Assembly (NCBI GenBank): GCA_016192035.1
Contig: JACPUW010000032.1
Coordinates: 1,450-65,449, forward strand
DNA: 64,000 bases
DNA from: Bacteroidota bacterium
GTDB lineage: Bacteria > Bacteroidota > Bacteroidia > CAILMK01 > JACPUW01
Reading direction: 5' to 3'
Shown here in pieces: positions 17,597-39,671 of the stretch (position 1 is the first letter of the stretch; every line of letters starts with the position of its first letter). The notes under the pieces were generated by a model. The model saw only the letters and a program-made list of their open reading frames with translations, was not told the DNA's origin and ran no database searches. The position numbers and the translations under genes were made by a program.

Positions 17597-17606
17597 AGAA
17601 ATTGAA

Positions 17607-20789: not shown

Positions 20790-21623
20790 TTGCAGGCCAT
20801 GACCAGGGTTTTCCATATTTGTACTTGTCTTTTCGCTTTTGTGCAATGCGTTGTTGGCCAGCCATCTATTCTGGGTATAGGCCCCCAATCACGGGCCATG
20901 GGCGGTGTGGCGAGCACCTTGTCAAATGCCTGGTCGGCGGCCAATAACCAAGCATGCCTGGCCATGTTAGAAACGGCCCAATTAGGTGTGAGCGCCGTGC
21001 GACACTACAACTTGGGAGAACTGACCCAGGGCCACATTTCAGGTGCATTGCCCATTAAAAAATTTGGCAATCTGGGATTTAGTTTCAGTCACCTGGCCAT
21101 GACAGATGTAATGTCCGACGATAGGTTTGGCCTTTCGCTGGGCAGAAAATTTGGCCCCAATTTTTCAGCTGGCATTCAGCTTCAATTACTTTGGTTCAAC
21201 CTTCCTGCCTACGGCAACCGGGTTGCGCTATCACCGGGCATGGGGTTTTTATACTTACCCAATCCATTACTCTCCATAGGTGTGTATGCGCGCAACATCT
21301 TTACCCTTTTTGGCAAGCAGGATAATACCGGTTTGTTGCCACCAACCGCCGTGATGGGCATCAGCTATGTGCTCAGCGAGAAGCTGACAGCCTATGCCGA
21401 TGCAGGATTTTCAGTGGCCCAGGGGGCTAACATGATGATAGGGGCAAGCTATAAGCCAAACAAAAGGCTAAGACTTAGGGCTGGGGTATCTACGGCCACT
21501 TTTACCTATTCTTTGGGCCTTGACATTCGCTTCGGGTCCATTAACGTACTAGTAGGCATATCACACCACCAACGGCTGGGGGCCAGCCCCGAACTAGGCA
21601 TGAACTATGGCACCGCTCAATAG
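20790..21623 (+). CDS. Short FadL/PorV-like outer-membrane protein (family uncertain; PorP/SprF-like not excluded)
   Basis: The 277-aa ORF has a signal peptide. The mature N-terminus GIGPQSRAMGGVASTLSNAWSAANNQACLAML resembles the FadL/OmpP1/PorV N-terminal motif. Confidence 0.45.
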   Translation: MQAMTRVFHICTCLFAFVQCVVGQPSILGIGPQSRAMGGVASTLSNAWSAANNQACLAMLETAQLGVSAVRHYNLGELTQGHISGALPIKKFGNLGFSFSHLAMTDVMSDDRFGLSLGRKFGPNFSAGIQLQLLWFNLPAYGNRVALSPGMGFLYLPNPLLSIGVYARNIFTLFGKQDNTGLLPPTAVMGISYVLSEKLTAYADAGFSVAQGANMMIGASYKPNKRLRLRAGVSTATFTYSLGLDIRFGSINVLVGISHHQRLGASPELGMNYGTAQ

Positions 21624-23661
21624 AATCTGGTTTGCCATAGCCATTATTTGGCTTCCGTCGGCAGCCTTGTCACAATCCGAGTCGGAGTTGGTGCAACAGG
21701 TAATGGAGTATATACTTGAAAACGAAGAAACTGAGTTAGACTATACCGACCTCCAACTTGACCTGTTGGGCTATCTACAGAAACCCTTGGATATAAATAA
21801 GACCAATCACCACGAATTGGGGCTTTTGGGATTTTTAACCGAACCGGAAATAGCAGCCATTCTTGCCCACCGCCAGCTATATGGCCAATTTATTTACACC
21901 TATGAACTGCAAAGCGTAGATGGCCTGGGCCTTGACCGGGCCAAATTGCTCTCCAATTTTGTGCAGTGTGGCGAGGGCGCACAAAAGGCATCACTTAGCG
22001 AAATGGTACACGAGGGCAAAGGCGATTTGCTAGTGAGATACAAGACCATAGTGCAGCAACAAGCGGGATATATCAGCAACATATCGGGCGAAAAAACCTA
22101 TGAGGGCAGCCCCTTTCAACTCATGTGTAGGGCAGGATACCGCTACAACAACAGGCTCAGCCTGGGCCTAACCGCCGAAAAAGATATGGGCGAGGCATTT
22201 TTAAGTGGAAACCAAGGACAGGGCTTTGATTTCTACTCAGGCCATATACACTATGCACACAGCGGCTTGTTCCGTTCGCTATGCTTGGGCGATTACCAGG
22301 TTCAGTTTGGCCAAGGAGTGGCACTATGGAGTGGCCTTTCATTTGGCAAGAGTGCCGAACCCCTACTGGTAGCCCGGCGTCCAAGAAAACTATTGCCTTA
22401 CCGGTCAATTAACGAGAACCAATTTCTAAGAGGCGCCGCTGCCACATTCGGGCTTGGCCCTTGGGAACTCACCGCCTTTGTCAGTAAGAAAAAACTGGAT
22501 GGGGCAGTGGGTTATGATAGCCTTGGCCAAGCCCTTTCGCATAGCACCTTATCACTGGATGGATTTCACCGAACCGCTTCGGAATTAGCAAAAAAAGACG
22601 CGATTGGCGAACAAATACTGGGATCGTGCCTGGAATGGAACAGAAAAGGTTACCGCGTAGGAGCCGTATATGCCCTTACCTCCTACACACCTGGCATGCA
22701 AAAACCCAACAGTCCGTACCAGTTACACGATTTATACGGCAAGGGGTACGCTACCTCCAGTGTGTACCATGCAGGTTCACTTGGAAAGGTGTACTTATTT
22801 GGCGAACTGGCTATCAATAACCTTGACCTAAACACCCTAAGCGGCATACAAGGTTTGATAGCCCCGCTTACCAATACCATGGAAATAGCCTTACTCCATA
22901 GGCACTATAGGCCTGGGTACCATACGGCCTACTATGGCGCATTTAGGGAGCAGAGCAAAGTGGAAAACGAAGCCGGGACCTATGTGGGCATTCATTATGC
23001 GCCACATACCCATTGGCTGTTCAAGGCCTACATTGACCGGTTTCGCTTTCCATGGTTGCGGTACCAGGCCGACATGCCCAGCTATGGGCATGAATACCTT
23101 GTGGAGGTGCAGTATAAACCCAGCCGAAATTTTGTGATGATAGGCCGGATAAGGAGCCAACTCAAGGAAGCGAACCTACCCGGTGATGCTGGTCATTTGT
23201 CGCCACTGGTGGGGGAGTCAACTACCCACTACAGGCTCCAAGCCAGGTTCAACACCATAGCAGGCCTAACCGCCACTTGTAGGGGTGAATATGCCGCTTA
23301 TACAAGGGCCGGGGGCACGCGCTATAGCGGCGCCCTGGTATTTCAGGATTTTGCATTTAAGCCCTTGGATAAAAAGTACCACCTATGCATGAGGTATGCC
23401 GTGTTTCATGTACAAGATTATGGTGCAAGGATTTACGCCTATGAAAACGACGTGCTGTATGCCTACTCCGTGCCCGCCTATACCGGGCGCGGTCAACGCA
23501 TGTACATACTCCTGAAATACAAACCCCTACACGGAATGGAGTGCTGGCTTCGGTACGCGGTGACCCAGTATAGCGACCGCAGCACCATAGGCACCGGAAA
23601 TGAAACCATAGCGGGCAATACGCGAGGTGAACTCAAGGTGCAGGCCAAGTTCCGGTTTTAA
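21607..23661 (+). CDS. Large outer-membrane protein with N-terminal helix-hairpin-helix (ComEA-like) segment
   Basis: The 684-aa ORF has a signal peptide and an HhH-like segment (ELGLLGFLTEPEIAAILAHRQLYGQF). The remainder is rich in Gly/Tyr/aromatics and ends in a terminal …KFRF, the beta-barrel OMP signal. It overlaps the upstream gene by 17 nt, so the two are translationally coupled. Confidence 0.5.
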   Translation: MAPLNRIWFAIAIIWLPSAALSQSESELVQQVMEYILENEETELDYTDLQLDLLGYLQKPLDINKTNHHELGLLGFLTEPEIAAILAHRQLYGQFIYTYELQSVDGLGLDRAKLLSNFVQCGEGAQKASLSEMVHEGKGDLLVRYKTIVQQQAGYISNISGEKTYEGSPFQLMCRAGYRYNNRLSLGLTAEKDMGEAFLSGNQGQGFDFYSGHIHYAHSGLFRSLCLGDYQVQFGQGVALWSGLSFGKSAEPLLVARRPRKLLPYRSINENQFLRGAAATFGLGPWELTAFVSKKKLDGAVGYDSLGQALSHSTLSLDGFHRTASELAKKDAIGEQILGSCLEWNRKGYRVGAVYALTSYTPGMQKPNSPYQLHDLYGKGYATSSVYHAGSLGKVYLFGELAINNLDLNTLSGIQGLIAPLTNTMEIALLHRHYRPGYHTAYYGAFREQSKVENEAGTYVGIHYAPHTHWLFKAYIDRFRFPWLRYQADMPSYGHEYLVEVQYKPSRNFVMIGRIRSQLKEANLPGDAGHLSPLVGESTTHYRLQARFNTIAGLTATCRGEYAAYTRAGGTRYSGALVFQDFAFKPLDKKYHLCMRYAVFHVQDYGARIYAYENDVLYAYSVPAYTGRGQRMYILLKYKPLHGMECWLRYAVTQYSDRSTIGTGNETIAGNTRGELKVQAKFRF

Positions 23662-25696: not shown

Positions 25697-28600
25697 TTAT
25701 CTCACCAAGGTAATGGTTCCGTTTGCCGGAATCATTTCTGTTTCACCCTTAAACCTTGACTTAAACACAAAGAAATACGTACCTGGAGCGGCATTTCCTC
25801 CTTCGGTCCTGTTGGTGCCATCCCAGAATTTGCACACCGTGGTCTGGGTTTCTTCCTTGAAATAGCACTCCAGTTCATCGTCTTGGTCAGCGCGCATCAT
25901 AATGGCGCCCCAGCGGTTGTAGATGGTAAGTTCCCACTCAGGCACCACTTGCAACTGCATTTCCCACCAGTCGTTGACACCGTCGCCATTGGGGGTTATC
26001 ACGTTGTAGAACTGGAGTATGGGTTCTACAATTAACCGAACAACGGCCCTATCTGTACAAGCCCTGGCATCATCTGGATCTACGTAATCAGATACCAAAA
26101 GCTCCACCATGTATTCACCTTCAGTGAAATCGACATATACAAATCGGCTACTGTCAGAATAGGTTTCCTCATGTATCACTGTTAGGGTATCGGGCAATTT
26201 AAATACCCTCCAACGGCTATACAGTGCATTCAGTGATCGGTTAAGGAAGACGTAGTTGCCCATGGCCTCGTTGGAACGTTCGTCAACTTCTATTTCCGCT
26301 TTCACTTCCTTCACGTTAATGGTCACTGCATCGGTCAATGGGCAGATAGGGAAATCACCCAAACCAATAGCCGTGATGCTATACTTACCGGGCTCGGCAT
26401 AGACCTGTCCTATCTCCTCTGCTACCGCTTTGGCATACACCGAATTCTCCAATCCCATATTCCAAACTACCGAATTATACCCTGTGTAGGTGGAATCTGC
26501 CACCACAGAGAAGATGATTTCTTCGCCAGGGCAGATCACATAGTCACTGGCCTTAATGGTAAATGGATCATAGTCGCGTACTGTTACGGTTATCGTATCT
26601 TCCGTGGGGTCATCAGGGTTCGGATAAACGTCAAGACATTGTTTTTCAACACCTGTAATAGGATCATTAACCTTGGCAGAGACACCCACCGTTATGTTAT
26701 ATTTCCCTGGCTTATCAAAGTAAAGCCCCACTTTCCTTCGCTTCTTGAAATCTGAAATTGCTTGTGCCAACACAGGATCGGTAGTCCAATAGCTCTGAGT
26801 CCTTTCTTCAAAACTGCTACTATCTATGACATAGGCAGAATCATTGACACAAATCACGTCTTGGGGCAAGAAAAACTTAGCCTGAGGCCCTATAATTTTA
26901 ATATAGAACTTCTTTGTTATTTCATCTTCACAACCTTGCATAGTCTTTACTTTCAATCTCACAGTGTAGCCACTGTCATGGGCGTCTAGGTAAGTGTGGA
27001 TGGGGTTTTGGAGGATTGATGTGTCCCTTTCATCACCAAAATCCCATGACCAATAAACTACCGAATCCATCTTACCCTTGGTAACAGATCTACCGCTCGG
27101 CACATCTTCTTTATTTTCAATAATTTCAGATGTATCCTTAAACTCGATAGATGAAGGGGTACACACCAATATCGTATTGCAGGTATCACATACACCAAAG
27201 AATGCACGCACTCCGAGCACACGAACGGCGTTTTGTTTGGTATTTGGTGTCCAGCAGCCCATGCTATCGCGCGCCCAAAGGGTCACATCATAAACTCCCA
27301 CTCCAAACTTTTCACCATACTTTTTGGAAGGTCCATAAGTCCATTGGGTAGAACGCCATGCTGTATTCATATCCCAGTTGTATTTGCCATAACCTGGGAC
27401 ACCATTCTGAATTGAATCGGCGGGGTTAATCCACACTTCTATATTGGCCGAATCCATAACCCGCTGATAGTCCTCCATACGAATACGTAATCCATTGACA
27501 TCAAGCGAATCAGTACCATCGGCTTTGGTAAGGTAACGCTGGGCATCAAAGTCCCATGCTATCATTTCCTTGTACAGAGGCCCTGTATATCCCGCTATGT
27601 TTTTGTACCAAAAATATCGGGCAGCCGAACTATCGGGATTGTAGAAATAGCCATTTGAGTCAATGCATGTGGTGTTTTCCCACCATTCATTTAATTCGCA
27701 AAACACCTGGCCACCTGGATGCCAGTAATAGACTGAGTCGTTGAAGGTAACTGTTTGGAAATTGCACAGCACACTGTCGTCATACCTAAATGCCTGATGC
27801 TGACCCAGCCATATTTCTTTCGATGAGCCTCCAAAACAGAAGTCCGCTCCATGTTGGGCTTTGGTTGTGGAGGTAATGATGTATTTGCCCGGTTCCTTCA
27901 ATAGGTAGTTAACCGTGTCGCGCAGGTTAACCAATTTGGTATCGCCCACTTGCAGTGCCATATATCCATCAGGCATCATCAGGAGTGAGTCGGCCAACAT
28001 ACTTTTTGCTGCAAAACCATTTTGACTTGCCGATTTAACTATGAAATACTTGAAGTTGCGAAGTGAATCACGCGAAAGACAAGCGGACTTACCCCTATTG
28101 TTTCCGTCAAGGGTATCATTCCTCCTATAATCCTTTACCGATAGGATAATTGGATAAGGCAGTTTTGTAGGTAGCAAGTGCGGTTCCCTGGCTATACAGT
28201 CTGTAAACTCTATGGCATTTACCACATCGGGACGCTTCTGGCCTTCATTGCCTGCCGGCCTGCCGTCGGTTTCTTCCACCACGCGGGTCCTTGGATTGGG
28301 CGACACTAGGAATTCCCCGTTGGCATCTATAAAATAGCGGTAATTCTCATAGAAGAAGGTATCAAAACAGTCGCCTACCTTGATAACAATACCAGGTGTT
28401 TTGCAGCCGGCCGTACCGTAGCTCCAGCGCATACCTATCAATTGTAGGATCATTTCAGGAATCCAGCCACACTCATAATAAAAAGTGTCCACCTCCTCAT
28501 AACCATACACTATTATAGGGCGGCCACCCGATCCCGCATTGGCTGAATCGACAATCACCATTTTTACCCGGCCATTGTCCTTAATGCCCCCGGTTTGCTG

Positions 28601-31600
28601 CCTTACGTTCACACTCTGTAAGAAACCAAGGTTAGAAATGGTGGCAACACCTTTTGCCCGTACGGTACCATATACACCTGGGGTAATCAAATCGCGCCAT
28701 TCCACATTGTATGTGCCGCCCTTCTTGCCACTGCCTCGATTGATGATTTCGGTTTTTACAATTTTCCCCGCTCCGTCAGTTGTACACGATATCTTGTTGC
28801 AATCGTTGTCGGTAGGGTCATCGTTCTTGCCTTGATATTGGTTATCGCGGTTAAATATCATCCAGAAAGTCTCCCTTCCACAAAGTGGTATGGTCTGGGC
28901 TATATTGATGCGCTGGAAGTAAGGGTTTGCCGCGTTGCCCACGCAAGGAGCGGCACCACGGCCCAATTCTACCCCTTTTCTAAAGTCATTGCCATTTTGG
29001 TCCTTCTGAAATTGAGGTTGGTTATAGTAGTTCACAGAATCTACGGTGGCAAAACCCTCGGGATCTGCTGGGCCGCCATCGGGCTCTTGCATCACAATGG
29101 GTTGTTGATCACTTGATTCGCAATCGTTTACAGGATCATATACCGTCAACATGGCTGTCCAGCAACCATCGGTGGCATATAGGTGCTGTGGGGCTGCAAT
29201 CTCAGAGTACAGGCACCGAAGTGGATCGCCCGAAGGATTGCTTCCCTTTACCAACATGGATGTTCTACTGGCATCATAGTAAGTGGTGCATTGATCGCCG
29301 TCGTCCCCAAAGTTCCAGAGGTAGTACATACTGTCAGAAGCCCAAGGGTAATTGATGTTGTCCCTGCACGAATCCAGGTTGTTGGCACCAATAAAAGCCG
29401 CCGACATATTGTCCATATCGTGCATACCATGGGTTGGGATGGTATTGTAATCCCTGCCAAATAGCCTATATTTCAAACTGTTATTCTTAAAGGTAACCAA
29501 GTTTGGCGCTTTACAGTCAAACTTAAACTTATCGGAATCGTGCATGGTGCGCCATTCGTCGTCGCAGTCGGGAGGCAATGTGCCTGCGTACATGGCAGGA
29601 AAATGAAGTCCCCCTTTGTGCTTAATGGGGCTTCGCACAATGCGGTATAGGTAGTTAACCCCGCTTATGGTGATTTTGTGCGCCCTTAAGTAGGGTTCGT
29701 GCACCCAGAATGTGGTATAAACCTTAGGCCCCCCGCCTATTGGGGCTATGGAGTCTGTAATTTGGAGGGAATCCACTACCGGAATAGGGTCTGAGTAATC
29801 CCAAGTAGGTCTAAATGCCTGTGAGAATTGGTTGTAACGATAGCGCCAATTCCCGTTCACCCCATTGTCAGGTGCTTCATACACAGGTATGGAATCTATA
29901 ACATATGGGTTGCGCGGTATGGTATCGCCCTTTTTAAAGTAAAAGCTATCGCACAAGAAAGAGTAGAACCCATCAATGGTAGCTATAAATGATGTTTGAT
30001 CATAAAACACGGTATCACCTGCGCGTATGAATTTGGTGATACCCGGAGTCCTTACGGCATCCTTCGTCTGGTGCTTGTTAAAAATGGGTTTGCTCACCCA
30101 GCCATCTTTTTCGGCATAGTAAAAATTGGGCCCACATGCCGTGGCATCGTCGCCCGCTGCACCGAGTGAAACGGCATAGGAATCTATGTTGGCATTGCAA
30201 TAGACAAAGTAGCTGTCCCTCTTGGTTTTTTGCCTATGGTCCACCCACACATAGTCTATGGTTTGAATGCCCGATGAGGCACGATAGCACTCGTCATATT
30301 TGATTTTTTCAAATGCAGCGCGGGTTACTTCCCGCGGATCCACACAATTGTTTGCCGGAAACTCGGGTGGAGGTGGGAGGTTTATGGCCGCCGAGGGCCC
30401 CCTGAGCTTTACGAAACAAATGGTGGTATCACGGGTGGGGCATGGGGGCTCTGTAATGGCCAAACTGATGTTATAAAAACCTGGACCACCGACAAACTGG
30501 TGCGAAGGGCTCCAGCTATCGCGGTTCACGTTTAATTGTTGTGAGGCGGGGTCTCCAAAAGTCCACGTCCATTGGGTGGCATTTGGCCTGGGTGGGTGTA
30601 TAAAGGTGATGCTATTATTGGTAAAGCATGGGGTATCTGGCAACCATACAATATCAAATTTGAAATTGATGGAGCGTATGGCGTCTTTTAATATAAAGGT
30701 CTGTTCGCACCCATCTCTGGCCACTATGGTCAACGAAGGGGATTTATATCCATCGCTACAGTATTTCCTGGTAAAACCTGTCCACCAATTGTTGTAGTCT
30801 TCATTGCCCGGGCTGCGCATATAGAAGGTTTGAACCGACTTCTTCCCAGAGGTGCCAAAATTCCAAATCCAATGATCGATCAAGGAGGTGTCAAATGGCG
30901 TCCGGTTGTTAAATTTAATTTCCGTGCAAGGACAGCCCACGGGTCCAGATACGGTGAACCTAGCTCCAATGTCATTATACACTTCGGGGTGTGCTTTTCG
31001 TACTTTCACATCATTGCATCCCTTCTCGTCGGTTACCGTATAGACAATGTCAAAGTTTCCGCCCTGTGGGTAGCTATGGCAAATGGTAGGTTTGTTAGAC
31101 CCCGCGCCATCGCCAAAGTCATAAAAGTGTTTGGTTAGTTTGTGCCCTTCCTTACCGGGTACTGCCAAGCTACTAAAACAGAATTCATTGTCCTTAAAGC
31201 ACTGCGCAGTATCGCTCGTAATCTCGTAATCGGCCACCGGGTTGGAATAAACCAATATGGGGGCTGTAAGCAAATAATCCTTCCAGGTAGTGCCTGTTTT
31301 AATCTTTAGTATCGGGTTATAAGTCCCGGCATCGAAATTTCTTCCAAAAGTCCTAACGGTGCCTGAGGGCAACCAGTCGTCGTGTCGGACTATACGCGTT
31401 GTGCCCACCCAGACTTCCACGGAATCCACCGCCGCCCCGCTTATGTCAGCCGAAAAGGTGACCAGGTGCGGTTCACAACCCTCATATGGGTTGCCAATGC
31501 CTGAAATGCTGAATGTTACGGTTTGTGCCAACAGGGAGTTGGTTGGCAGCAGGCCTACTAAGGCAATAAGCCATAGCAAGGATGCGCCTGGGAGTTTCCG

Positions 31601-31606
31601 TTTCAT
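25697..31606 (-). CDS. Giant (1969 aa) cysteine-rich cell-surface protein with T9SS type-B C-terminal sorting domain (SprB-class adhesin-like)
   Basis: It has a signal peptide MKRKLPGASLLWLIALVGLLPTNSLLAQ. The C-terminus …YNVITPNGDGVNDWWEMQL…ELTIYNRWGAIMMRAD…FWDGTNRTEGGNAAPGTYFFVFKS…GTITLVR matches the gliding-motility-associated CTD (type B). The body is very long and rich in Cys/Trp/Tyr/Asn/Gly, consistent with multiple Ig/PKD-like domains. Confidence 0.75.
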   Translation of the reverse strand: MKRKLPGASLLWLIALVGLLPTNSLLAQTVTFSISGIGNPYEGCEPHLVTFSADISGAAVDSVEVWVGTTRIVRHDDWLPSGTVRTFGRNFDAGTYNPILKIKTGTTWKDYLLTAPILVYSNPVADYEITSDTAQCFKDNEFCFSSLAVPGKEGHKLTKHFYDFGDGAGSNKPTICHSYPQGGNFDIVYTVTDEKGCNDVKVRKAHPEVYNDIGARFTVSGPVGCPCTEIKFNNRTPFDTSLIDHWIWNFGTSGKKSVQTFYMRSPGNEDYNNWWTGFTRKYCSDGYKSPSLTIVARDGCEQTFILKDAIRSINFKFDIVWLPDTPCFTNNSITFIHPPRPNATQWTWTFGDPASQQLNVNRDSWSPSHQFVGGPGFYNISLAITEPPCPTRDTTICFVKLRGPSAAINLPPPPEFPANNCVDPREVTRAAFEKIKYDECYRASSGIQTIDYVWVDHRQKTKRDSYFVYCNANIDSYAVSLGAAGDDATACGPNFYYAEKDGWVSKPIFNKHQTKDAVRTPGITKFIRAGDTVFYDQTSFIATIDGFYSFLCDSFYFKKGDTIPRNPYVIDSIPVYEAPDNGVNGNWRYRYNQFSQAFRPTWDYSDPIPVVDSLQITDSIAPIGGGPKVYTTFWVHEPYLRAHKITISGVNYLYRIVRSPIKHKGGLHFPAMYAGTLPPDCDDEWRTMHDSDKFKFDCKAPNLVTFKNNSLKYRLFGRDYNTIPTHGMHDMDNMSAAFIGANNLDSCRDNINYPWASDSMYYLWNFGDDGDQCTTYYDASRTSMLVKGSNPSGDPLRCLYSEIAAPQHLYATDGCWTAMLTVYDPVNDCESSDQQPIVMQEPDGGPADPEGFATVDSVNYYNQPQFQKDQNGNDFRKGVELGRGAAPCVGNAANPYFQRINIAQTIPLCGRETFWMIFNRDNQYQGKNDDPTDNDCNKISCTTDGAGKIVKTEIINRGSGKKGGTYNVEWRDLITPGVYGTVRAKGVATISNLGFLQSVNVRQQTGGIKDNGRVKMVIVDSANAGSGGRPIIVYGYEEVDTFYYECGWIPEMILQLIGMRWSYGTAGCKTPGIVIKVGDCFDTFFYENYRYFIDANGEFLVSPNPRTRVVEETDGRPAGNEGQKRPDVVNAIEFTDCIAREPHLLPTKLPYPIILSVKDYRRNDTLDGNNRGKSACLSRDSLRNFKYFIVKSASQNGFAAKSMLADSLLMMPDGYMALQVGDTKLVNLRDTVNYLLKEPGKYIITSTTKAQHGADFCFGGSSKEIWLGQHQAFRYDDSVLCNFQTVTFNDSVYYWHPGGQVFCELNEWWENTTCIDSNGYFYNPDSSAARYFWYKNIAGYTGPLYKEMIAWDFDAQRYLTKADGTDSLDVNGLRIRMEDYQRVMDSANIEVWINPADSIQNGVPGYGKYNWDMNTAWRSTQWTYGPSKKYGEKFGVGVYDVTLWARDSMGCWTPNTKQNAVRVLGVRAFFGVCDTCNTILVCTPSSIEFKDTSEIIENKEDVPSGRSVTKGKMDSVVYWSWDFGDERDTSILQNPIHTYLDAHDSGYTVRLKVKTMQGCEDEITKKFYIKIIGPQAKFFLPQDVICVNDSAYVIDSSSFEERTQSYWTTDPVLAQAISDFKKRRKVGLYFDKPGKYNITVGVSAKVNDPITGVEKQCLDVYPNPDDPTEDTITVTVRDYDPFTIKASDYVICPGEEIIFSVVADSTYTGYNSVVWNMGLENSVYAKAVAEEIGQVYAEPGKYSITAIGLGDFPICPLTDAVTINVKEVKAEIEVDERSNEAMGNYVFLNRSLNALYSRWRVFKLPDTLTVIHEETYSDSSRFVYVDFTEGEYMVELLVSDYVDPDDARACTDRAVVRLIVEPILQFYNVITPNGDGVNDWWEMQLQVVPEWELTIYNRWGAIMMRADQDDELECYFKEETQTTVCKFWDGTNRTEGGNAAPGTYFFVFKSRFKGETEMIPANGTITLVR

Positions 31607-31656: not shown

Positions 31657-32976
31657 CTATCTGTTTAGGGATACAAGTCCCTTTATGGTTTCCGTAATGC
31701 TGTTGTCGCAAGGATTGGGATACTGTATTATATAGGTATATAGTCCAGGTTCGCACAAGGTGCCTTGGTTCATCCAAGAGCCATCCCATTCGTCACCCAT
31801 TCCATGACCTGATTTATATACAAGCACCCCTGATTGGTTATAGACTTCTAGTTCCATTTGCCCCTGGCCTTCTGCTACTTGGGGGAGCTTCACCCCAAAG
31901 ACATCGTTTTTGCCATCGCCATTCGGGGTAAAAATATTGGGTATCAACGGCCTCTTATGCTCTGTGGAAGCTGCGGCATGTAATACCATTTCCGCAGTAT
32001 CCCTACAATCTCCTTGTTTCACAATAAGTTGTAACCCCTTAGGCCCTGAATTCCCAAAGCCGACTTCCACGGTCTGCCCAGCATATTGCCGTGAGTCAAT
32101 ATTCCATAGGAAATCAAGATTCTTATCGGCCACCCCATACACCCGATATTGCCCGCAATGGGTTTCCTCTATGTCAATCTTGGCTTTCGGCCTTTCGGAT
32201 ACCACTATTTGCTTCTTGAGCAAAACCCTGGAACCCTTATCCAGCATCTCCAGGACTTCTAGCTCATAGTTTCCGGGCATAGTGATGGACAATCTTTTCT
32301 TTTGGCCAATTCCCCCTTGTTTAACCACAATTTTACTCTTTACTTCAAACAATCGATAGATATACAGATGATTGGCAATGGGATTGGCAATTGTAAGTTC
32401 CACCACATCATTGGCACAAACCTTTGAAGAAGAAACACTAGCCAAAGGGGGCTTTTTACCACTTTCTAACAGTTGATCTTTGGTAGAGTCCACCATGCTG
32501 CCGGCACGAGCTACACCCTTTCCCAACATGTTCTTACCGGTATCCCCACTTTTAGCTTTGTTCCCCACTCCTTTTGAAAGGGGCTCATTATCGCCCTGAT
32601 CTTTATAAGGTTCTGCCGTATCGGAAAGCCGACCATTTTCTGGCCCATTATCCTCAATGGAATTTGATGAATTATCTAAATTTTCCCCTTGATTTACAAA
32701 TACTTGTTCATGTATCAAGGTTGTTTCTTCCTTTTCGGCCTCCTCTTGCCAACTTGCATTTACCCACAACGTGGTGATTACCAATGCAATTCCTGCAATT
32801 GATGCAATACCCCAAAGCCCTACGCCACCACCAAGGCCGGTTTGTGGACCGCCTTTGGCAGGTACTTGGGCTGATGTCGCCAAACGCCCTTGCACCCGCT
32901 CCCAATCGGCACCCACTTCGTCAGTTGTGTGCGGGGCGCTATGGTTGCTGAAATGTGCTTTAAGTTGGTCCATCAA
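31657..32976 (-). CDS. Membrane-anchored anti-sigma-like protein ending in a T9SS type-B C-terminal sorting domain
   Basis: The 439-aa ORF has no N-terminal signal peptide. It has a ~54-aa charged N-terminus, then one TM helix (GLWGIASIAGIALVITTLWV), then a ~130-aa acidic low-complexity linker and small beta-rich domains. The C-terminus …IFTPNGDGKNDVFGV…ELEVYNQSGVLVYKS…WDGSWMNQG…PGLYTYIIQY…GLVSLNR matches the type-B CTD. It starts 6 nt after the ECF sigma stop. Confidence 0.6.
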   Translation of the reverse strand: MMDQLKAHFSNHSAPHTTDEVGADWERVQGRLATSAQVPAKGGPQTGLGGGVGLWGIASIAGIALVITTLWVNASWQEEAEKEETTLIHEQVFVNQGENLDNSSNSIEDNGPENGRLSDTAEPYKDQGDNEPLSKGVGNKAKSGDTGKNMLGKGVARAGSMVDSTKDQLLESGKKPPLASVSSSKVCANDVVELTIANPIANHLYIYRLFEVKSKIVVKQGGIGQKKRLSITMPGNYELEVLEMLDKGSRVLLKKQIVVSERPKAKIDIEETHCGQYRVYGVADKNLDFLWNIDSRQYAGQTVEVGFGNSGPKGLQLIVKQGDCRDTAEMVLHAAASTEHKRPLIPNIFTPNGDGKNDVFGVKLPQVAEGQGQMELEVYNQSGVLVYKSGHGMGDEWDGSWMNQGTLCEPGLYTYIIQYPNPCDNSITETIKGLVSLNR

Positions 32977-32981
32977 TGGGG

Positions 32982-33515
32982 CTATTTATAAAAGTTCAAT
33001 TGCTCTATTTGTCTCTTTAGCAACAGCTTTGCCTTATTCAACTGTGACTTGGATGTGCCTTCGGCTATACCTAGCAATTCACCTATTTCCTTGTGGGTAT
33101 ATCCTTCAATCACATACATGTTGAACACCGTACGATACCCTTTTGGCAAGCGTTGTATCATTTGGATAATTTCTTCGTAGGCCAAATCCTTAAACACATC
33201 ATTGTCCACCGATTGATTCGACAACACAGATTCATCGTCGCTGGTAGGCATGCGCATATCGCGCCTATATTGGTCTATGGCGTTGTTGACCATAACCCTT
33301 TTCATCCACCCTACAAATGAGTAATCGGGATGGTACTGGTCTATCTTTTCAAAGATCTTCACAAAGCCATCCTGCAACATATCACGTGCTTCCTCACGAC
33401 CCTGGGCATAGCGCAGGCAAATGCCTAGCATAATGCCATAGTAGTGCTCAAATACTTTTTTTTGGACTTTTGGGTCGTGCCGCTTGCACCCCTCAGCCAT
33501 TTCCATTTCGGTCAT
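32982..33515 (-). CDS. RNA polymerase ECF-type sigma-70 factor
   Basis: The 178-aa ORF is taken from the internal ATG at 33515 (MTEMEMAEG…) of ORF 32982..33683. It has region 2 (…FEHYYGIMLGICLRYAQGREEARDMLQDGFVKIF…) and region 4 HTH (…YTHKEIGELLGIAEGTSKSQLNKAK…). Confidence 0.75.
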   Translation of the reverse strand: MTEMEMAEGCKRHDPKVQKKVFEHYYGIMLGICLRYAQGREEARDMLQDGFVKIFEKIDQYHPDYSFVGWMKRVMVNNAIDQYRRDMRMPTSDDESVLSNQSVDNDVFKDLAYEEIIQMIQRLPKGYRTVFNMYVIEGYTHKEIGELLGIAEGTSKSQLNKAKLLLKRQIEQLNFYK

Positions 33516-33688
33516 TCGGATGCGTAGCCTTGCATGGTTGTACAAGCCAAAACTACGAAACAAGCTACCCCTTAGTTGCCTTTGGTGGCCTAAACTGTCT
33601 TTTACATCTATAGTTTGGCACTCCTGGGCCTCGTAGCCCGCCTTATGATGCTTACGGTAACTTCGCCACATTAAAAAAAGCACACTGC

Positions 33689-35179
33689 ATGGGTAAAATA
33701 CTTATTGCCAATAGAGGAGAGATAGCGGTAAGGATCATACGCTCGGCGCGTGAAATGGGGTACTCCACCGTAGCGGTATATAGCGATGCAGATATAGACG
33801 CCCCACACGTACGCCTTGCCGATGAAGCATACCGACTTGGGCCAGCCCCGTCAAATCAATCGTACTTGCTGGGAGACAAGATTATTGAAATTTCTAGGCA
33901 GGCCGGGGTATGGGGCATACACCCTGGATATGGATTCTTATCAGAGAACTACGCTTTTGCACAAGCTGTTACCGATGCCGGCTTGGTTTTTATTGGCCCA
34001 AAACCGCACGCTATTCAAATAATGGGAAACAAACTGGCTGCCAAGGCTGCCGTTTCGGCCTACCAAATCCCCATGCTTGGCGGCACTGCCGGTGCGGTGG
34101 TAGATGTGGAGGAGGCCAAGGAAATAGCCGAAAAAATTGGATACCCCGTATTAATTAAGGCTGCGGCCGGTGGCGGAGGCAAGGGCATGAGGGTGGTTTA
34201 TGAATCCGCTTTGCTTGAAAATGAAATGAAAAGGGCTGTATCAGAAGCACTTTCCTCCTTTGGTGATGGATCGGTCTTTATAGAGAAATACGTAACATCA
34301 CCCAGGCATATAGAGATACAGGTGCTTTTTGACAGCCATGGCAACGGAGTATATTTATTTGAGCGTGACTGCTCTATACAACGAAGGCACCAAAAGGTAG
34401 TAGAAGAAGCCCCATCAGCCGTGCTTAGCCCATCGCTGCGCAAGGCCATGGGGGAGGCGGCCCTTGATGTAGGCCGTTCATGTGATTACCTGGGTGCAGG
34501 CACCGTAGAGTTTTTGGTTGATGACCAAGGCAAGTTTTTCTTTTTGGAAATGAACACCCGGTTACAAGTGGAGCATCCTGTCACTGAATTGATTACCGGA
34601 CTCGACCTGGTAAAAGAGCAGATAAAGGTGGCTAGGGGCGAAGCACTTTCATTTAACCAGGAAGACCTGAAAATTTATGGCCATGCCATAGAGCTCAGGT
34701 TATACGCTGAAGACCCGGCCAACAATTTTTTGCCCTATACCGGTACGCTGACGCGCTACCGCCCATCAAACGGACCCGGGGTTAGGGTGGATAGCGGTTT
34801 TGAAGAGGGCATGACCATACCGGTTCACTATGACCCCATGATTGCAAAATTGATCGTTCATGGTGCCGACCGTGCTGAGGCCATTGCCCGTATGAAAAGG
34901 GCCATACATGAATTCCAACTGGAAGGCATTGAAAACACCCTTTCTTTTGGTCACTTTGTGATGGAGCACCCAGCCTTTATAAGTGGGGACTACAACACCC
35001 ATTTTGTGCCGGCCTATTTTAGTCCAGAAAAACTCTCAGTTGTTGAAAATCAATCTGATAATAAACTAATAGCCGCTTTGTCCGCTTGGATTTATGAATC
35101 AAATAAACAAGGAAATGGAGCAACTACCCCCATTGGCCCTGCCAACAACGGCGCATGGCTTAGGAGAAGGTGGGCCTGA
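33689..35179 (+). CDS. accC: Biotin carboxylase (acetyl-CoA carboxylase biotin carboxylase subunit-like)
   Basis: The 496-aa ORF has the N-terminus MGKILIANRGEIAVRIIRSAREMG and an ATP-grasp core with the CPSP-like region (…EMNTRLQVEHPVTE…). No accB/BCCP gene is adjacent. Confidence 0.8.
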   Translation: MGKILIANRGEIAVRIIRSAREMGYSTVAVYSDADIDAPHVRLADEAYRLGPAPSNQSYLLGDKIIEISRQAGVWGIHPGYGFLSENYAFAQAVTDAGLVFIGPKPHAIQIMGNKLAAKAAVSAYQIPMLGGTAGAVVDVEEAKEIAEKIGYPVLIKAAAGGGGKGMRVVYESALLENEMKRAVSEALSSFGDGSVFIEKYVTSPRHIEIQVLFDSHGNGVYLFERDCSIQRRHQKVVEEAPSAVLSPSLRKAMGEAALDVGRSCDYLGAGTVEFLVDDQGKFFFLEMNTRLQVEHPVTELITGLDLVKEQIKVARGEALSFNQEDLKIYGHAIELRLYAEDPANNFLPYTGTLTRYRPSNGPGVRVDSGFEEGMTIPVHYDPMIAKLIVHGADRAEAIARMKRAIHEFQLEGIENTLSFGHFVMEHPAFISGDYNTHFVPAYFSPEKLSVVENQSDNKLIAALSAWIYESNKQGNGATTPIGPANNGAWLRRRWA

Positions 35180-35828
35180 TACGGTCTTAGGTATCAAACC
35201 CTATGTGGTGGGCCTGGCCGGGGGAAGTGCCAGCGGCAAAAGCCTTTTGTTGTCTTTTTTACAACAGACGATTGGTTCCGTGATATGCGTAGTCGGATTG
35301 GACGATTTCTATCTCCCTCTGCACCTTCAACCCAAGGATGATCAAGGCCAATTCAATTTTGATGAACCCCAGGGCATAGACCGAAAAAAGTTGGTGGACT
35401 GCGTGACCACCCTGATAGAAGGAAAGGGCGTGGCCATAGAAGAATACGCGTATAACCACCCCGAAAGACGGGAGAAAACAACCAAATGGCTGCCTGCCAA
35501 ACCTATAATACTGGTAGAAGGCCTATTTGTTCTTTTCTATGAAGAAATGTGGCCATTACTTGACCTCAAGGTTTTCATTCATGCCGATGAAGCGCTTCGG
35601 TATAAGCGGCGGCTTGAGCGCGATACCAAAGTACGGGGCATAGCGCCTGAAATGGTGGACTATCAATGGAGGAACCACGTAAATCCCTCATATGAAAAGT
35701 ACTTGGCGCCCTGTATGTCACAAGCCGATTTGGTGGTGAACAACAACCAGGGATTCGACAAGGCCCTACGTATATTGCAGCAGCATTTACATAGTGAAGC
35801 AGCATGGCGAACAAATTCGCGGTCATAG
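35094..35828 (+). CDS. udk: Uridine kinase
   Basis: It has the P-loop GLAGGSASGKS and the uridine-kinase core (…EGLFVLFYEE…). The ORF-track start overlaps accC by 86 nt. A more likely start is the in-frame GTG at 35205, just before the P-loop and after the accC stop. Confidence 0.7.
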   Translation: MNQINKEMEQLPPLALPTTAHGLGEGGPDTVLGIKPYVVGLAGGSASGKSLLLSFLQQTIGSVICVVGLDDFYLPLHLQPKDDQGQFNFDEPQGIDRKKLVDCVTTLIEGKGVAIEEYAYNHPERREKTTKWLPAKPIILVEGLFVLFYEEMWPLLDLKVFIHADEALRYKRRLERDTKVRGIAPEMVDYQWRNHVNPSYEKYLAPCMSQADLVVNNNQGFDKALRILQQHLHSEAAWRTNSRS

Positions 35829-36496
35829 GATTAGGAAGGTTTGGAAACCGTATAGCACGTACCCTGTCCCAGCGCGGGGCAGAGGTGTTGGCCATAGACC
35901 TTTCACCAGATAGGGTAGAGCAAATAAAAGATGAGGTGGCCTATGCCGTGTCACTCGATAGCACAGACCTGAAGGCCCTAGAAGCCCATGATGTGCAGCA
36001 CATGGATGCAGTTGTAGTAGCAATAGGCGAAAATTTTGAAGCCCTACTCCTTACATCTGCGCTACTTAAAGATCTGAAAATTAAACGGATAATTACCAGG
36101 TCGTCTTCGCCTACCCAAACCACCATCCTAAAGCAAATGGGCATAACCGAAATCCTCTCTCCTGAGGATGAGGTGGGTATAAACGTGGCCCAGCGACTGC
36201 TCAATCCAGATGTTATCACCTTTTTTGAATTGCCCGATGGCTATGAAATAGTGGAAGTGGTAACGCCACACGCCGTAGTTAACAAGAGCATAGCCGATAT
36301 TAAGCTAAGGGAGAAATACAACCTAAACCTCATAACCATAAAAAGAGAATTTGAGGAGATAGAAGCCGGGGCTCCCGTTCGGGTGATGCACACCATAGGG
36401 GTTCCCAAACCCACATCAACCCTTTTTGAAGGCGACCTAATGATCCTAATGGGCCAGCGCAGCGATATTAAAAAGTTTATCGAAATCAATCGCTAG
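35804..36496 (+). CDS. trkA: TrkA-family K+ transport NAD-binding regulatory subunit (KtrA/TrkA-like)
   Basis: The 230-aa ORF has the Rossmann motif FAVIGLGRFG (TrkA-N) followed by a TrkA-C domain. Confidence 0.8.
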   Translation: MANKFAVIGLGRFGNRIARTLSQRGAEVLAIDLSPDRVEQIKDEVAYAVSLDSTDLKALEAHDVQHMDAVVVAIGENFEALLLTSALLKDLKIKRIITRSSSPTQTTILKQMGITEILSPEDEVGINVAQRLLNPDVITFFELPDGYEIVEVVTPHAVVNKSIADIKLREKYNLNLITIKREFEEIEAGAPVRVMHTIGVPKPTSTLFEGDLMILMGQRSDIKKFIEINR

Positions 36497-36611
36497 CCCA
36501 ACCCGTGGTTGTGGGTTATGCCACACTGCTTTAATTTCGCGGCTTAATATTGCCGCAATAGGCTTTTTTATTGATTTTCAGTTAATTAAGTAAGAATAAT
36601 CCAACTCACAC

Positions 36612-39600
36612 ATGAAGAGTAGAGGTGCTATACAGGCATTTACCATTGCACTGGCCTTGTCCTGCCTGTTCTATATGTCATTCTCGGTAGTGACCTACAT
36701 GGTAGAACGGAATGCCGATGAGTACGCCGCATCAAAAACCGATGCGGAGGCCGACGTGACCGCCCTAAGGAAACAATACCTCGATTCCATGGCTTCGGTG
36801 GATGTATATAATATAGGTATCACATCATATACCTACAGCGATTGCAAAAAGAACAAGCTTAACCTGGGGCTTGACCTGCAAGGGGGCATGCACGTGACGC
36901 TGGAAGTAGCCCTGGACAAGCTGATAAAAAGGCTAAGCGGCAACCAGGAAAGTGAAACGCTAAAAAAAGCCTTGGAACTGGCGAATGAACGCCAACTCAC
37001 TAGCCAAGAGCCGTATGTGGACCTGTTTTACGATGCCTTTAAGGAAGTAGCTGGCGATGAGAGTCTTTTTAGGGTTTTTGACACCCCTGAAAACCGCGAC
37101 AAGTTTGACCGCGAAAGCGAAAACCGCGATGAGGAAGTATTGAAATTTATAAGGAGCGAGGCGGAACAGGCCGTGCAGCGCACACAGGATATTATCCGGA
37201 CCAGGATAGATGAGTTTGGGGTAACCCAACCTACCATTCGGCAAGAGGGCGCCAGCAGGATTACCATAGAACTGCCAGGCGTGGACGACACCGAACGCGT
37301 GAGGAAACTGCTGAAACGGTCAGCCAAGTTGGAATTTTGGGAAACCTATGGTGCTACCGACATGATTAACAAGCACTTTGTGAGTGTTAACGAGGTTTTG
37401 GCCGCCAAACTGGGCTTGGACGACAAGAAAAAAGATGCCACAGACACCACTGGCACTGCCGATGCTACCGACACTACCGCTGCCAGCACAACTGCCGATA
37501 TAGCATCAACCCCAAATACGGATGAAAAAAGCGATAAGGACGAAACTGCTCCTGTCTTGGAGAAAGAGGGTGATAGCCTGGCTGCCGAAACCGGGGATAG
37601 TGCACAGAGCGATTCGCTTAAAGATGCCGCTGCACAGAAAGAAGCAGCCGCAAAAGTTCCTTTATATCAGAAACTTAGACCACAGGTTGATTTTAATAAC
37701 CAAAACCAGATAATGGAGGGCCCTGTGGTAGGTACTGCCTTTGTGAACGATACGGGCATCATCATGACCTACCTGAATTACCCTGAGGTTAAGGCCGTGC
37801 TGCCCGCCGATGTCAAATTCCTTTGGTCAGTAAATGAAGTACAAGAAGGTTCCAGGGTGTTTAGCCTCTATGCGTTGAAAACCGAAAGGGGCAAAGCCCC
37901 ACTGGATGGGTCGGTAATCACCGATGCATTTCAGAACTATGACCAAATCACGGGGAAACCAGACGTGAACATGAAGATGAACCCGGCCGGTGCCCGTAGG
38001 TGGAAAGCCATGACCGAGGCCAACATAGACAAATGGATAGCCATTTCACTTGACAACAAAGTCTATTCGGCCCCACAGGTAAATTCGGTGATACCCAACG
38101 GTAGCTCGGTTATTCAGGGTGGTTTTAGCATAGAAGAAGCAAAAGATTTGGCCAGTGTGCTCAAAGCCGGCAAACTGCCCGTGACGGTGGACATAGCCGA
38201 AGAAGAAACCGTAGGGCCCACCCTCGGCGCAGAGTCCGTGCGCAACGGGTTGATTTCTCTGGTAATAGGATTTTTATTGGTACTGTTCTTTATGGGCTTT
38301 TACTATAGGAGCAGCGGCCTTGTGGCCAATATTGCCCTGTTTGCCAACCTGTTCTTCATCATAGGCATTTTGTCATCACTCCATGCGGCGCTCACATTAC
38401 CTGGCATGGCAGGTATCGTGCTTACCATAGGCATGGCGGTTGATGCCAACGTGCTCATTTTTGAAAGGATACGTGAAGAGCTAAAAGCAGGCAAAAGCTT
38501 AAAGGCCGCCATAGAAGACGGTTACAGAAATGCCTACTCCTCCATCATAGACTCCAACCTAACCACCTTCCTCACGGGAATTATCCTGTTGATTTTTGGC
38601 AAAGGCCCCATAAGCGGTTTCGCGGTCATACTGGTCATAGGCATTCTTACCTCCCTGTTTTGTGCCATTTTCCTTAGCCGCTTGATTTTTACCTGGATGC
38701 TCGCCAGGGAAAAGCCCATCAGCTTTGGTTCGGAGAAAACTACCAATATGTTGTCAGGGCTCAATTTTGACTTTATGGCCAAGCGCAAGTTGGCGTATAT
38801 CGTTTCGGGGTCGGTAATCGTGATTGGACTTATTTCACTGATGACCCGAGGTCTTAACTTAAGCGTTGATTTTGAAGGCGGTAGAACGTATGTGGTACAA
38901 TTTGATGAAAACACCTCGGTAACAGAGGTTCGAGATCTGCTTACCCCCATTTTTGGTAGTTCACCAGAGGTAAAAACTTATGGCTCACCTTCCAAACACA
39001 AAATAACCACAAAATATAGGATAAACGACAACAACGACAATGTGGACCAAGAGGTACAAGAAGTGCTTCAAACCACACTCGGAGAAAAGTATCCCGATGG
39101 TTTTGTGATAGAGAAAAGCCAAAAGGTAGGCCCCACGTTTGCCCGCGACATTGAAATATCGGCCATTCTTTCCATTCTGGTGGGTCTTATTGGCATCTTT
39201 TTATACATAGTGGTCAGATTTAGAAAATGGCAATATGGGCTGGGCGCCCTGGTGGCCCTGGTGCACGATGTATTGTTGGTAATTGGCTTGTTCTCTTTAC
39301 TATGGGGCGTACTGCCCATAAACCTAGAGGTGGACCAAGCCTTTATTGCCGCCATACTCACCGTGGTGGGTTACTCCATAAACGACACGGTGGTGGTATT
39401 TGACCGCATACGGGAAATGCTCTCTCTGCACCCCAAATCACCCCTGTACGCCACCATTAACACGGCGCTTAACCAAACCATAAGCCGGACGCTTATCACT
39501 TCCCTAACCACCCTGCTTGTGGTTTTGATACTTTTCCTACTTGGAGGTGAAATTATCCGAGGTTTCTCCTTTGCCTTGTTGATAGGCATAACGGTAGGTA

Positions 39601-39671
39601 CCTACTCCTCCCTCTTTATAGCTACGCCCATAGTGGTGGACCTAGACCGCTCAGGGCGCAAAAAGGAATAG
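36612..39671 (+). CDS. secDF: Fused protein-export membrane protein SecD/SecF
   Basis: The 1019-aa ORF has a SecD periplasmic domain and a 6-TM block, followed by a SecF periplasmic domain and a second 6-TM block. It contains an ~80-aa acidic low-complexity insertion at 37420-37655. Confidence 0.9.
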   Translation: MKSRGAIQAFTIALALSCLFYMSFSVVTYMVERNADEYAASKTDAEADVTALRKQYLDSMASVDVYNIGITSYTYSDCKKNKLNLGLDLQGGMHVTLEVALDKLIKRLSGNQESETLKKALELANERQLTSQEPYVDLFYDAFKEVAGDESLFRVFDTPENRDKFDRESENRDEEVLKFIRSEAEQAVQRTQDIIRTRIDEFGVTQPTIRQEGASRITIELPGVDDTERVRKLLKRSAKLEFWETYGATDMINKHFVSVNEVLAAKLGLDDKKKDATDTTGTADATDTTAASTTADIASTPNTDEKSDKDETAPVLEKEGDSLAAETGDSAQSDSLKDAAAQKEAAAKVPLYQKLRPQVDFNNQNQIMEGPVVGTAFVNDTGIIMTYLNYPEVKAVLPADVKFLWSVNEVQEGSRVFSLYALKTERGKAPLDGSVITDAFQNYDQITGKPDVNMKMNPAGARRWKAMTEANIDKWIAISLDNKVYSAPQVNSVIPNGSSVIQGGFSIEEAKDLASVLKAGKLPVTVDIAEEETVGPTLGAESVRNGLISLVIGFLLVLFFMGFYYRSSGLVANIALFANLFFIIGILSSLHAALTLPGMAGIVLTIGMAVDANVLIFERIREELKAGKSLKAAIEDGYRNAYSSIIDSNLTTFLTGIILLIFGKGPISGFAVILVIGILTSLFCAIFLSRLIFTWMLAREKPISFGSEKTTNMLSGLNFDFMAKRKLAYIVSGSVIVIGLISLMTRGLNLSVDFEGGRTYVVQFDENTSVTEVRDLLTPIFGSSPEVKTYGSPSKHKITTKYRINDNNDNVDQEVQEVLQTTLGEKYPDGFVIEKSQKVGPTFARDIEISAILSILVGLIGIFLYIVVRFRKWQYGLGALVALVHDVLLVIGLFSLLWGVLPINLEVDQAFIAAILTVVGYSINDTVVVFDRIREMLSLHPKSPLYATINTALNQTISRTLITSLTTLLVVLILFLLGGEIIRGFSFALLIGITVGTYSSLFIATPIVVDLDRSGRKKE

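Follow-up and report, generated by a model that had tools for sequence, protein, structure and literature searches.

The question raised by the locus described here is why a sigma factor of a bacterium from an uncultured Bacteroidota lineage should be coupled to a membrane protein that ends like type IX secretion system (T9SS) cargo. The locus lies in a stretch of 64,000 nucleotides (nt), hereafter the window (GenBank assembly GCA_016192035.1, contig JACPUW010000032.1, positions 1,450 to 65,449 of the forward strand), and coordinates below are those of the window unless another locus is named. In an earlier note, made from the sequence alone, attention was drawn to a gene of an extracytoplasmic function (ECF) sigma factor, to the next gene, encoding a protein of 439 amino acids (aa) with the topology of an anti-sigma factor and a type-B C-terminal sorting domain (CTD) of T9SS, and to a giant gene downstream. 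In our opinion, the data lean towards a composite explanation, according to which this protein is a Dma-like anti-sigma factor carrying a type-B CTD in place of an outer-membrane beta-barrel, which would tie sigma activity and adhesin expression to T9SS or the cell surface. As a part of the same explanation and with the same degree of confidence, the three genes may be regarded as an autoregulated ECF sigma/anti-sigma/cargo operon of Bacteroidota.

The Three-Gene Locus and Its Recurrence

All three genes were found, on the minus strand, where they had been placed before, and the observation proved right in every particular.

33515..32982, minus strand: ECF sigma factor gene, 177 aa from ATG 33515, with Pfam and TIGR02937 matches
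32973..31657, minus strand: anti-sigma-like gene, 438 aa from ATG 32973
31606..25697, minus strand: gene of a giant T9SS cargo of 1969 aa, with a signal peptide, PKD domains and CHU_C

The anti-sigma-like gene starts at TTG 32976 (439 aa) or ATG 32973 (438 aa), that is, 5 or 8 nt past the stop codon of the sigma gene, which directly precedes it as claimed. It is separated from the giant gene by a gap of 50 nt, in which no terminator-like site was found on the minus strand, and the giant gene is probably co-transcribed with it. The giant is followed by a convergent methyltransferase gene.

A word-index homology search with the 438-aa protein returned only the protein itself and one weak match, and an exhaustive HMMER search among 1.84 billion cluster representatives (E ≤ 1e-3) was needed to reveal the family. 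This search gave 9034 proteins, mostly matched through CHU_C alone; the full architecture, consisting of 400–490 aa with one internal hydrophobic helix and a C-terminal CHU_C, was found in 63 of the 149 best-scoring cluster representatives. Family members are named in databases as 'gliding motility-associated', 'T9SS type B sorting domain-containing', 'PKD domain-containing' or 'hypothetical' proteins, and the family is common in environmental Bacteroidota. One of these proteins, P0274 from the cluster of P0162, was deposited as belonging to Oscillatoria amoena NRMC-F 0135; identical proteins come from metagenome-assembled genomes (MAGs) of Bacteroidota, and its source is probably a Bacteroidota contig in the assembly of a non-axenic culture.

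Gene order was examined in 13 loci (the window, L003, L005, L007, L009, L014, L089, L090, L091, L092, L094, L095 and L096), across which the identity of the anti-sigma-like protein goes down to 24–25%. The sigma gene is situated directly upstream of the anti-sigma-like gene in all 13, usually overlapping it or a few nt apart, and sigma orthologues with 59–77% identity occupy the same three-gene context. A giant PKD/CHU_C or SprB-repeat gene is found downstream in 11 of the 12 loci whose contig permits judgement, the exception being L091, where the sigma/anti-sigma pair occurs without a giant. Judged by these gene orders, the arrangement is no chance juxtaposition, since both orthologous and diverged loci repeat it, and the co-conservation with the ECF sigma factor and the three-gene arrangement proposed earlier were both borne out. 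The earlier note had also named a cleaved signal peptide, a lack of co-conservation with the sigma factor and the failure of the C-terminus against type-B models as results that would speak against it; none of these was obtained, apart from a score 1 bit short with one of the type-B models (see below).

N-Terminal Module and Membrane Topology

The 438-aa protein may be divided into five parts, all encoded on the minus strand.

32875..32973, minus strand: two-helix module, residues 1–33, putatively sigma-binding (AlphaFold, conservation, hhalign)
32758..32817, minus strand: hydrophobic helix, residues 53–72, taken for an anchor in the inner membrane, N-terminus inside (hydropathy scans)
32449..32757, minus strand: linker, residues 73–175, of low complexity, acidic, rich in Ser, Asn and Thr, predicted to be disordered (AlphaFold confidence, identity)
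31969..32448, minus strand: two immunoglobulin (Ig)-like (PKD-like) beta-sandwich domains, residues 176–335 (AlphaFold, Foldseek)
31660..31968, minus strand: type-B T9SS CTD (CHU_C), residues 336–438, at the extreme C-terminus (PF13585)

Orthologues of this protein, retrieved via the sigma factor, have about 30% overall identity and share one plan, which includes, from the N- to the C-terminus, a conserved motif, a Gly/Ser-rich stretch, a hydrophobic helix, a hypervariable acidic linker, two cysteine-containing beta domains and the CTD. The conserved N-terminal motif is formed by the residues L4, F8, A13, P14, E19, D23, W24 and V27. In the N-terminal half of the structure predicted by AlphaFold2 with a 40-sequence family alignment, helices were found at residues 2–8 and 17–32 (predicted local distance difference test, pLDDT, 74–81), followed by disorder at residues 34–58 and by one more helix at residues 59–71. 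Mean pairwise identity in the close clade is highest in residues 1–33 (45%), compared with 39% in the CTD and 11% in the linker. Being the best-conserved region, the N-terminal 33 residues indicate that the upstream start is real and that the N-terminus is under selection.

Topology statistics were obtained for the 63 family members sharing the architecture. In none of them was a hydrophobic segment or 10-mer found within the first 20–30 residues, nor does the window protein have a hydrophobic segment near its N-terminus, in agreement with the earlier claim that an N-terminal Sec signal peptide is absent. The single hydrophobic segment, located at about residues 53–72 in the window protein, starts at residue 58 in the median (range 31–80), and the uncharged stretch around the helix has a median length of 26 residues. 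The flanking charge amounts to +0.84 N-terminally and −1.59 C-terminally of the helix, and 52 of the 63 members show a positive-inside bias (N > C); the anti-sigma-like single-pass topology suggested before is consistent with these values. Conserved cysteines are confined to the distal domains of the family proteins.

Directly after the helix, the window protein contains VNA|SW, resembling a signal-peptidase site. A cleaved long signal peptide was considered as a general explanation and rejected because this site is not kept by the orthologues and the N-terminus is the best-conserved region. From the sequence features of the family, it may be concluded that the 438-aa protein is a signal-anchor protein with the N-terminus inside and the C-terminus outside, and not cargo with a cleaved signal peptide.

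Linker, Ig-Like Domains and Sorting Domain

The distal half of the AlphaFold2 model includes a linker with pLDDT below 50 (residues 73–161), two Ig-like sandwiches (residues 177–259 and 266–333) and the CTD (residues 340–438), each of the last three with pLDDT above 90. Relatives of the 438-aa protein match Pfam PKD, and the residues C186 and C323 in the Ig-like domains are conserved. Foldseek comparison with the PDB showed only generic tandem Ig/FN3 folds, including fragments of GhpA from Aureispira, and the PDB sequence search with the 438-aa protein found nothing.

The presence of a type-B CTD, as claimed in the earlier note, is clear with one model and borderline with another: Pfam PF13585 (CHU_C) matched residues 344–432 with 58.9 bits against a threshold of 27, whereas TIGR04131 gave 33.9 bits, about 1 bit below its cut-off of 35 bits. 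The TPNGDGxND motif and the residues W396, G398, Y412 and G432 are invariant or near-invariant across 40 family members, and the CTD, by this conservation, appears to be under selection. The closest GTDB relative, L009 (10533–11915), whose sigma factor is 67% identical, has a degenerate CTD without TPNGDGxND and with a CHU_C score of 22 bits, below the threshold; the sorting domain may be decaying in this lineage.

Relation to Dma and Other Sigma-Coupled Membrane Proteins

Scanning of GTDB species genomes with a sigma alignment gave 80 loci across Bacteroidota with 38–67% identity. At almost all of them, the coupled downstream gene encodes a product that starts with one to three copies of a LxxKLxxYEVxPPxxxWxxI-like motif, followed by one transmembrane helix. 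In many of these sigma-coupled relatives, at loci of Chitinophagaceae type (L011, L025, L030, L031, L035, L043, L047 and others), two or three tandem copies of YEVxPPxxxWxxI precede this helix. A Pfam scan covered 73 proteins, 69 of which are encoded downstream of sigma homologues, the other four being the window protein and three orthologues; OMP_b-brl_2 was matched by 8 of the 73, CHU_C by 6, and OMP_b-brl and the anti-sigma model RsgI_N by 5 each. In proteins from Bacteroidales and in several more, the N-terminal motif is followed by a transmembrane helix, a linker and OMP_b-brl_2, and proteins of this plan are paired with sigma homologues at 41–47% identity. The same plan is the architecture described for Dma1/Das1 (PMC10927553). 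Dma (dual membrane-spanning) proteins are anti-sigma factors that sequester the sigma factor by means of the N-terminus, span the periplasm with a disordered tether and have a beta-barrel in the outer membrane (PMC10927553, PMC13088901).

The N-terminus of the window family was compared with those of the sigma-coupled proteins at the level of profiles. A profile of six sequences was suggestive, with a probability of 46%. With the 63-sequence N-terminal profile, hhalign gave an in-register alignment with the N-termini of 118 OMP_b-brl_2 proteins of Dma architecture (probability 92%, P 6e-7) and a match with 66 generic sigma-coupled proteins (probability 97%, P 1.6e-10). These alignments support the homology of the N-terminal module to that of the sigma-coupled proteins of Dma architecture, so the window protein would share a Dma-type scaffold but carry a different outer module.

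The likeness to Dma extends to several properties. Both are found in Bacteroidota, the gene stands directly beside an ECF sigma gene, and some members of the window's sigma family have OMP_b-brl_2 proteins as partners. The window protein has a short, putatively sigma-binding cytoplasmic region at the N-terminus, and its single transmembrane helix followed by a long disordered tether, a criterion of Dma, precedes a C-terminal module that would be destined for the outer membrane. Unlike Dma, it has no eight-stranded OMP_b-brl_2 barrel, since Pfam detects only CHU_C and AlphaFold gives Ig-like sandwiches and the CTD; its contact with the outer membrane would run via T9SS or a PorP/SprF-like partner rather than via insertion by the beta-barrel assembly machinery (BAM); and its operon carries a giant adhesin-like T9SS cargo. 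The known output of Dma is vesiculation, which may not apply to the window system. The likeness rests on architecture and the N-terminal profile and not on an ECF21 assignment or on orthology to BT_4720/BT_4721.

For want of the defining barrel, the window protein is not filed here as a member of Dma. By analogy, it most probably works like a Dma, and it is best seen as a variant of this class and not as an isolated oddity.

Sigma Factor and Its Candidate Promoter

The sigma factor of the window matches Pfam Sigma70_r2 and Sigma70_r4_2 as well as TIGR02937 (92.6 bits). It has the features of an ECF (group IV sigma-70) factor, namely sigma-2 and sigma-4 domains only and a candidate promoter of AAC...CGT type upstream of its own gene. 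Classical ECF promoters carry AAC in their −35 and CGT in their −10 element. The candidate is the single match to its pattern in the whole 64-kb window.

33580..33554, minus strand: ECF-type promoter candidate GGCAAC-N17-TCGTA, about 40 nt upstream of the sigma ATG

In L003, L005, L007, L009 and the diverged L089, the same pattern precedes the sigma gene by 43–76 nt; with the window, it is thus conserved in six loci, all of them coupled to CHU_C proteins. Sigma homologues without CHU_C coupling, about 75 in number, lack this pattern upstream, and the background amounted to 4 matches in 345 control windows. The candidate promoter suggests, by its position and conservation, that the three genes are transcribed together and under autoregulation. 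It also bears on the start of the sigma gene. The open frame runs on upstream for 56 codons to GTG 33683 (33516–33683, minus strand), and the public annotation of an identical protein (P0003) takes a start giving 193 aa; the conserved candidate promoter falls inside this extension, which favours the 177-aa start at 33515 over the longer annotated ones.

In a neighbour-joining tree of sigma factors, the clade of the window is monophyletic, and other CHU_C-coupled sigma factors are scattered among the barrel-coupled ones on long, unreliable branches. Because the tree is poorly resolved, no conclusion is drawn on single or multiple origins of the version with the CTD.

Giant Cargo and Secretion Context

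The giant protein of 1969 aa has a classical signal peptide and matches Pfam PKD_4, PKD and CHU_C (52.7 bits). Beyond the CTD, no similarity was found between it and the 438-aa protein. A shuttle shared by the two proteins, or competition between them, was considered and is unsupported, as the CTDs of the anti-sigma-like proteins and those of the giants form separate subgroups.

Several other genes of the window touch upon T9SS. An NHL-repeat protein (16313–17848, minus strand) bears a type-A sorting domain (TIGR04183, 42.6 bits), so both CTD classes of T9SS cargo are encoded within the window. A 277-aa outer-membrane-like protein (20790–21623, plus strand) weakly matches the PorV/PorQ family (30 bits, where the cut-off is 90); the beginning of a 684-aa protein, which bears a signal peptide and matched no family, overlaps with it (the pair occupies 20790–23661, plus strand). 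At the diverged locus L096 (2308–4819), a PorP_SprF-family gene and a gene with an FGE-sulfatase domain, the domain of GldJ/PorK-type T9SS proteins, are located 4–5 kb upstream of the sigma gene, beside a Peptidase_C25 protein. The PorP_SprF gene is a possible candidate for a shuttle.

Divergently from the sigma gene, a block encoding biotin carboxylase, a PRK-family kinase, a TrkA-like protein and SecDF (33689–39671, plus strand) is syntenic in all close orthologous loci (L003, L005 and L007). Biotin carboxylase still adjoins the sigma gene in L096, despite an identity of only about 25% for the anti-sigma-like protein.

Proposed Mechanism and Alternative Explanations

According to the composite explanation, the two-helix N-terminal module would hold the sigma factor in the cytoplasm, and the hydrophobic helix, as the sequence supports, would anchor the 438-aa protein in the inner membrane. 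The disordered linker of about 100 residues is predicted to cross the periplasm, and the distal end would consist of two Ig-like domains and the type-B CTD where Dma has its outer-membrane beta-barrel. By analogy, the CTD could dock this end to the T9SS translocon or to an outer-membrane shuttle of PorP/SprF type, and the docked protein would then bridge both membranes and report the state of T9SS or the cell surface. Altered engagement (candidates are a pull, the export of a cleaved ectodomain and the loss of the partner) might, again by analogy, induce proteolysis of the anti-sigma factor and free the sigma factor. The latter would transcribe its own operon from GGCAAC-N17-TCGTA, so that more giant adhesin would be produced and the anti-sigma factor replenished. 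This explanation is preferred because of the coupling to the sigma factor, the sigma family shared with Dma-type pairs, the conservation and homology of the N-terminus, the topology, the predicted structure, the conservation of the CTD, the candidate promoter, the linkage to the cargo and the precedent of PorA–PorXY–SigP (see below).

A number of observations weigh against it. A chain tethered to the inner membrane would have to pass or occupy the T9SS translocon, and the route is mechanistically unclear. Anti-sigma models of Pfam and NCBIfam (ZAS/zf-HC2, RskA, FecR and RsgI_N) had no match on the 438-aa protein at E ≤ 0.1. Of the model searches proposed earlier, those for the CTD succeeded with PF13585 and fell just short of the cut-off with TIGR04131, and those for an anti-sigma domain did not succeed. 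The N-terminal relation to the sigma-coupled proteins is visible in profile–profile comparison only; with a plain hidden Markov model of the generic N-terminal motif, the clade of the window did not score above shuffled decoys. No link of the beta-barrel relatives to Dma1 of Bacteroides thetaiotaomicron was found by name or accession, the top 120 matches all being unnamed or from MAGs. The CTDs of the anti-sigma-like proteins show no cognate resemblance to those of their giants. No PorP/SprF N-terminal motif was detected in any frame of the window, and all family members examined come from metagenomes or MAGs.

It is possible, and can be put forward only tentatively, that T9SS itself is the signal. 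The 438-aa protein would then be a tethered 'test cargo', the CTD of which is grabbed by the translocon or a shuttle, and pulling or export would trigger intramembrane proteolysis and free the sigma factor. If this is true, the giant adhesin would be made only given secretion capacity, the pull would come from T9SS driven by the proton-motive force, and the system would represent a FlgM-like secretion checkpoint across two membranes as well as the first class of T9SS substrates inserted as inner-membrane proteins.

A closely related sub-case of the composite explanation, to which we likewise give a rather low probability, supposes that a site-1 protease or signal peptidase cuts the ectodomain, which is exported by T9SS as type-B cargo; with the same low probability, the remaining stub would be degraded, the sigma factor released and the giant adhesin made only when T9SS works. 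The logic of such a checkpoint resembles that of FlgM/sigma-28, and cutting at site 1 by signal peptidase takes place in RsiV. The location of the CTD at the extreme C-terminus, its conserved secretion motifs and the high cost of making the very large T9SS cargo of the operon without secretion are in favour of this sub-case. So are the signal-peptidase-like site directly after the helix and the occurrence of C-terminal fragments of Dma1, formed by its processing, in the outer membrane and vesicles (PMC10927553). However, that site is not kept in the orthologues, and the uncharged segment is long, resembling an anchor rather than a signal peptide.

It is unlikely that CHU_C is a co-opted fold, a beta-sandwich with only a sensing or binding role in the periplasm, which belongs to an ordinary anti-sigma factor of the single-membrane type and is never engaged by T9SS. 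Such a role would agree with the absence of a cleavable signal peptide and of an adjacent PorP/SprF gene, with the sub-threshold TIGR04131 score, with the degenerate CTD of L009 and with the separate subgroup formed by the CTDs of the anti-sigma-like proteins. On the other hand, the CHU_C domain is always placed at the extreme C-terminus, the family motifs are kept in 40 diverged members, the Pfam score is well above the threshold, and the operon partner is type-B cargo of T9SS at nearly every locus that can be assessed (11/12).

Finally, it is very improbable that the protein is ordinary T9SS cargo, or a chaperone or tether of the giant adhesin, with an unusually long signal peptide and no anti-sigma meaning: its CTD family is that of the probably co-transcribed giant and the names of its relatives in databases refer only to gliding motility or to a T9SS type-B sorting domain, but its first 33 residues are its most conserved part and share homology with the N-terminal regions of further sigma-coupled membrane proteins, the sigma gene, often overlapping, never fails upstream (13/13), the pair of L091 exists without a giant, and the resemblance to the giant ends with the CTD.

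Comparison with Other Known Systems

FecR contacts FecA, and in this way an outer-membrane machine signals to an anti-sigma factor in the inner membrane; in the FlgM/sigma-28 system, the sigma factor is released once the secretion machine is competent. Like FecA/FecR/FecI and FlgM, the system of the window would pass the state of the outer membrane or of secretion to a sigma factor. Unlike in FecA/FecR, a single polypeptide would contain both the receptor-contacting element and the anti-sigma factor, and the machine would be T9SS. No sequence relationship of the 438-aa protein to FecR or FlgM was found with Pfam and NCBIfam.

Type-B cargo is known together with PorP/SprF shuttles, for example SprB/SprF and Fjoh_3952/3951 in Flavobacterium johnsoniae and PG1035/PorP in Porphyromonas gingivalis (PMC12618676, PMC9143113), and 'orphan' type-B cargo without an adjacent shuttle gene has also been reported (PMC12618676). 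In the same paper of 2025, all T9SS effectors are stated to carry a Sec signal peptide (PMC12618676). Like such cargo, the window protein ends in a CHU_C/TIGR04131-type domain, situated at the extreme C-terminus and preceded by Ig/PKD-like domains. Of the other properties of type-B cargo, it shows neither an adjacent PorP/SprF shuttle gene nor a cleavable Sec signal peptide, instead of which it would have a conserved cytoplasmic N-terminus and a membrane anchor; it is also small (about 440 aa) and coupled to a sigma factor.

In the PorA–PorXY–SigP pathway of Porphyromonas gingivalis, a CTD protein feeds an ECF sigma pathway (PMC7712824, PMC12152298). The common feature is a protein with a T9SS CTD in a pathway ending at an ECF sigma factor. 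PorA differs from the window protein in being a secreted surface protein with a type-A CTD, which acts through a two-component system and is neither a membrane-anchored partner of a sigma factor nor encoded beside a sigma gene. This pathway shows that there is a precedent for a CTD protein in an ECF pathway, via a different architecture.

The arrangement had been presented earlier as one not known to be described. This stands in so far as no description of a sigma factor with an anchored CTD protein was found in the literature on anti-sigma factors, T9SS type-B CTDs and ECF factors combined, and has to be qualified by the Dma family, a close published precedent (PMC10927553).

Conclusions

If the explanation preferred here is true, Bacteroidota possess a class of CTD proteins that remain in the inner membrane by their anchor and are linked with a sigma factor. 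To our knowledge, the way in which these bacteria regulate their giant surface adhesins is largely unknown, and the locus would offer a concrete and testable link from the status of secretion or the cell surface to transcription. The Dma idea would thereby be widened, as the anti-sigma scaffold that spans the envelope appears to be built in modules, its outer end being a beta-barrel in some proteins and a T9SS sorting domain in others. Such a design may let the cell couple the production of a giant adhesin to the secretion machinery or to the cell surface.

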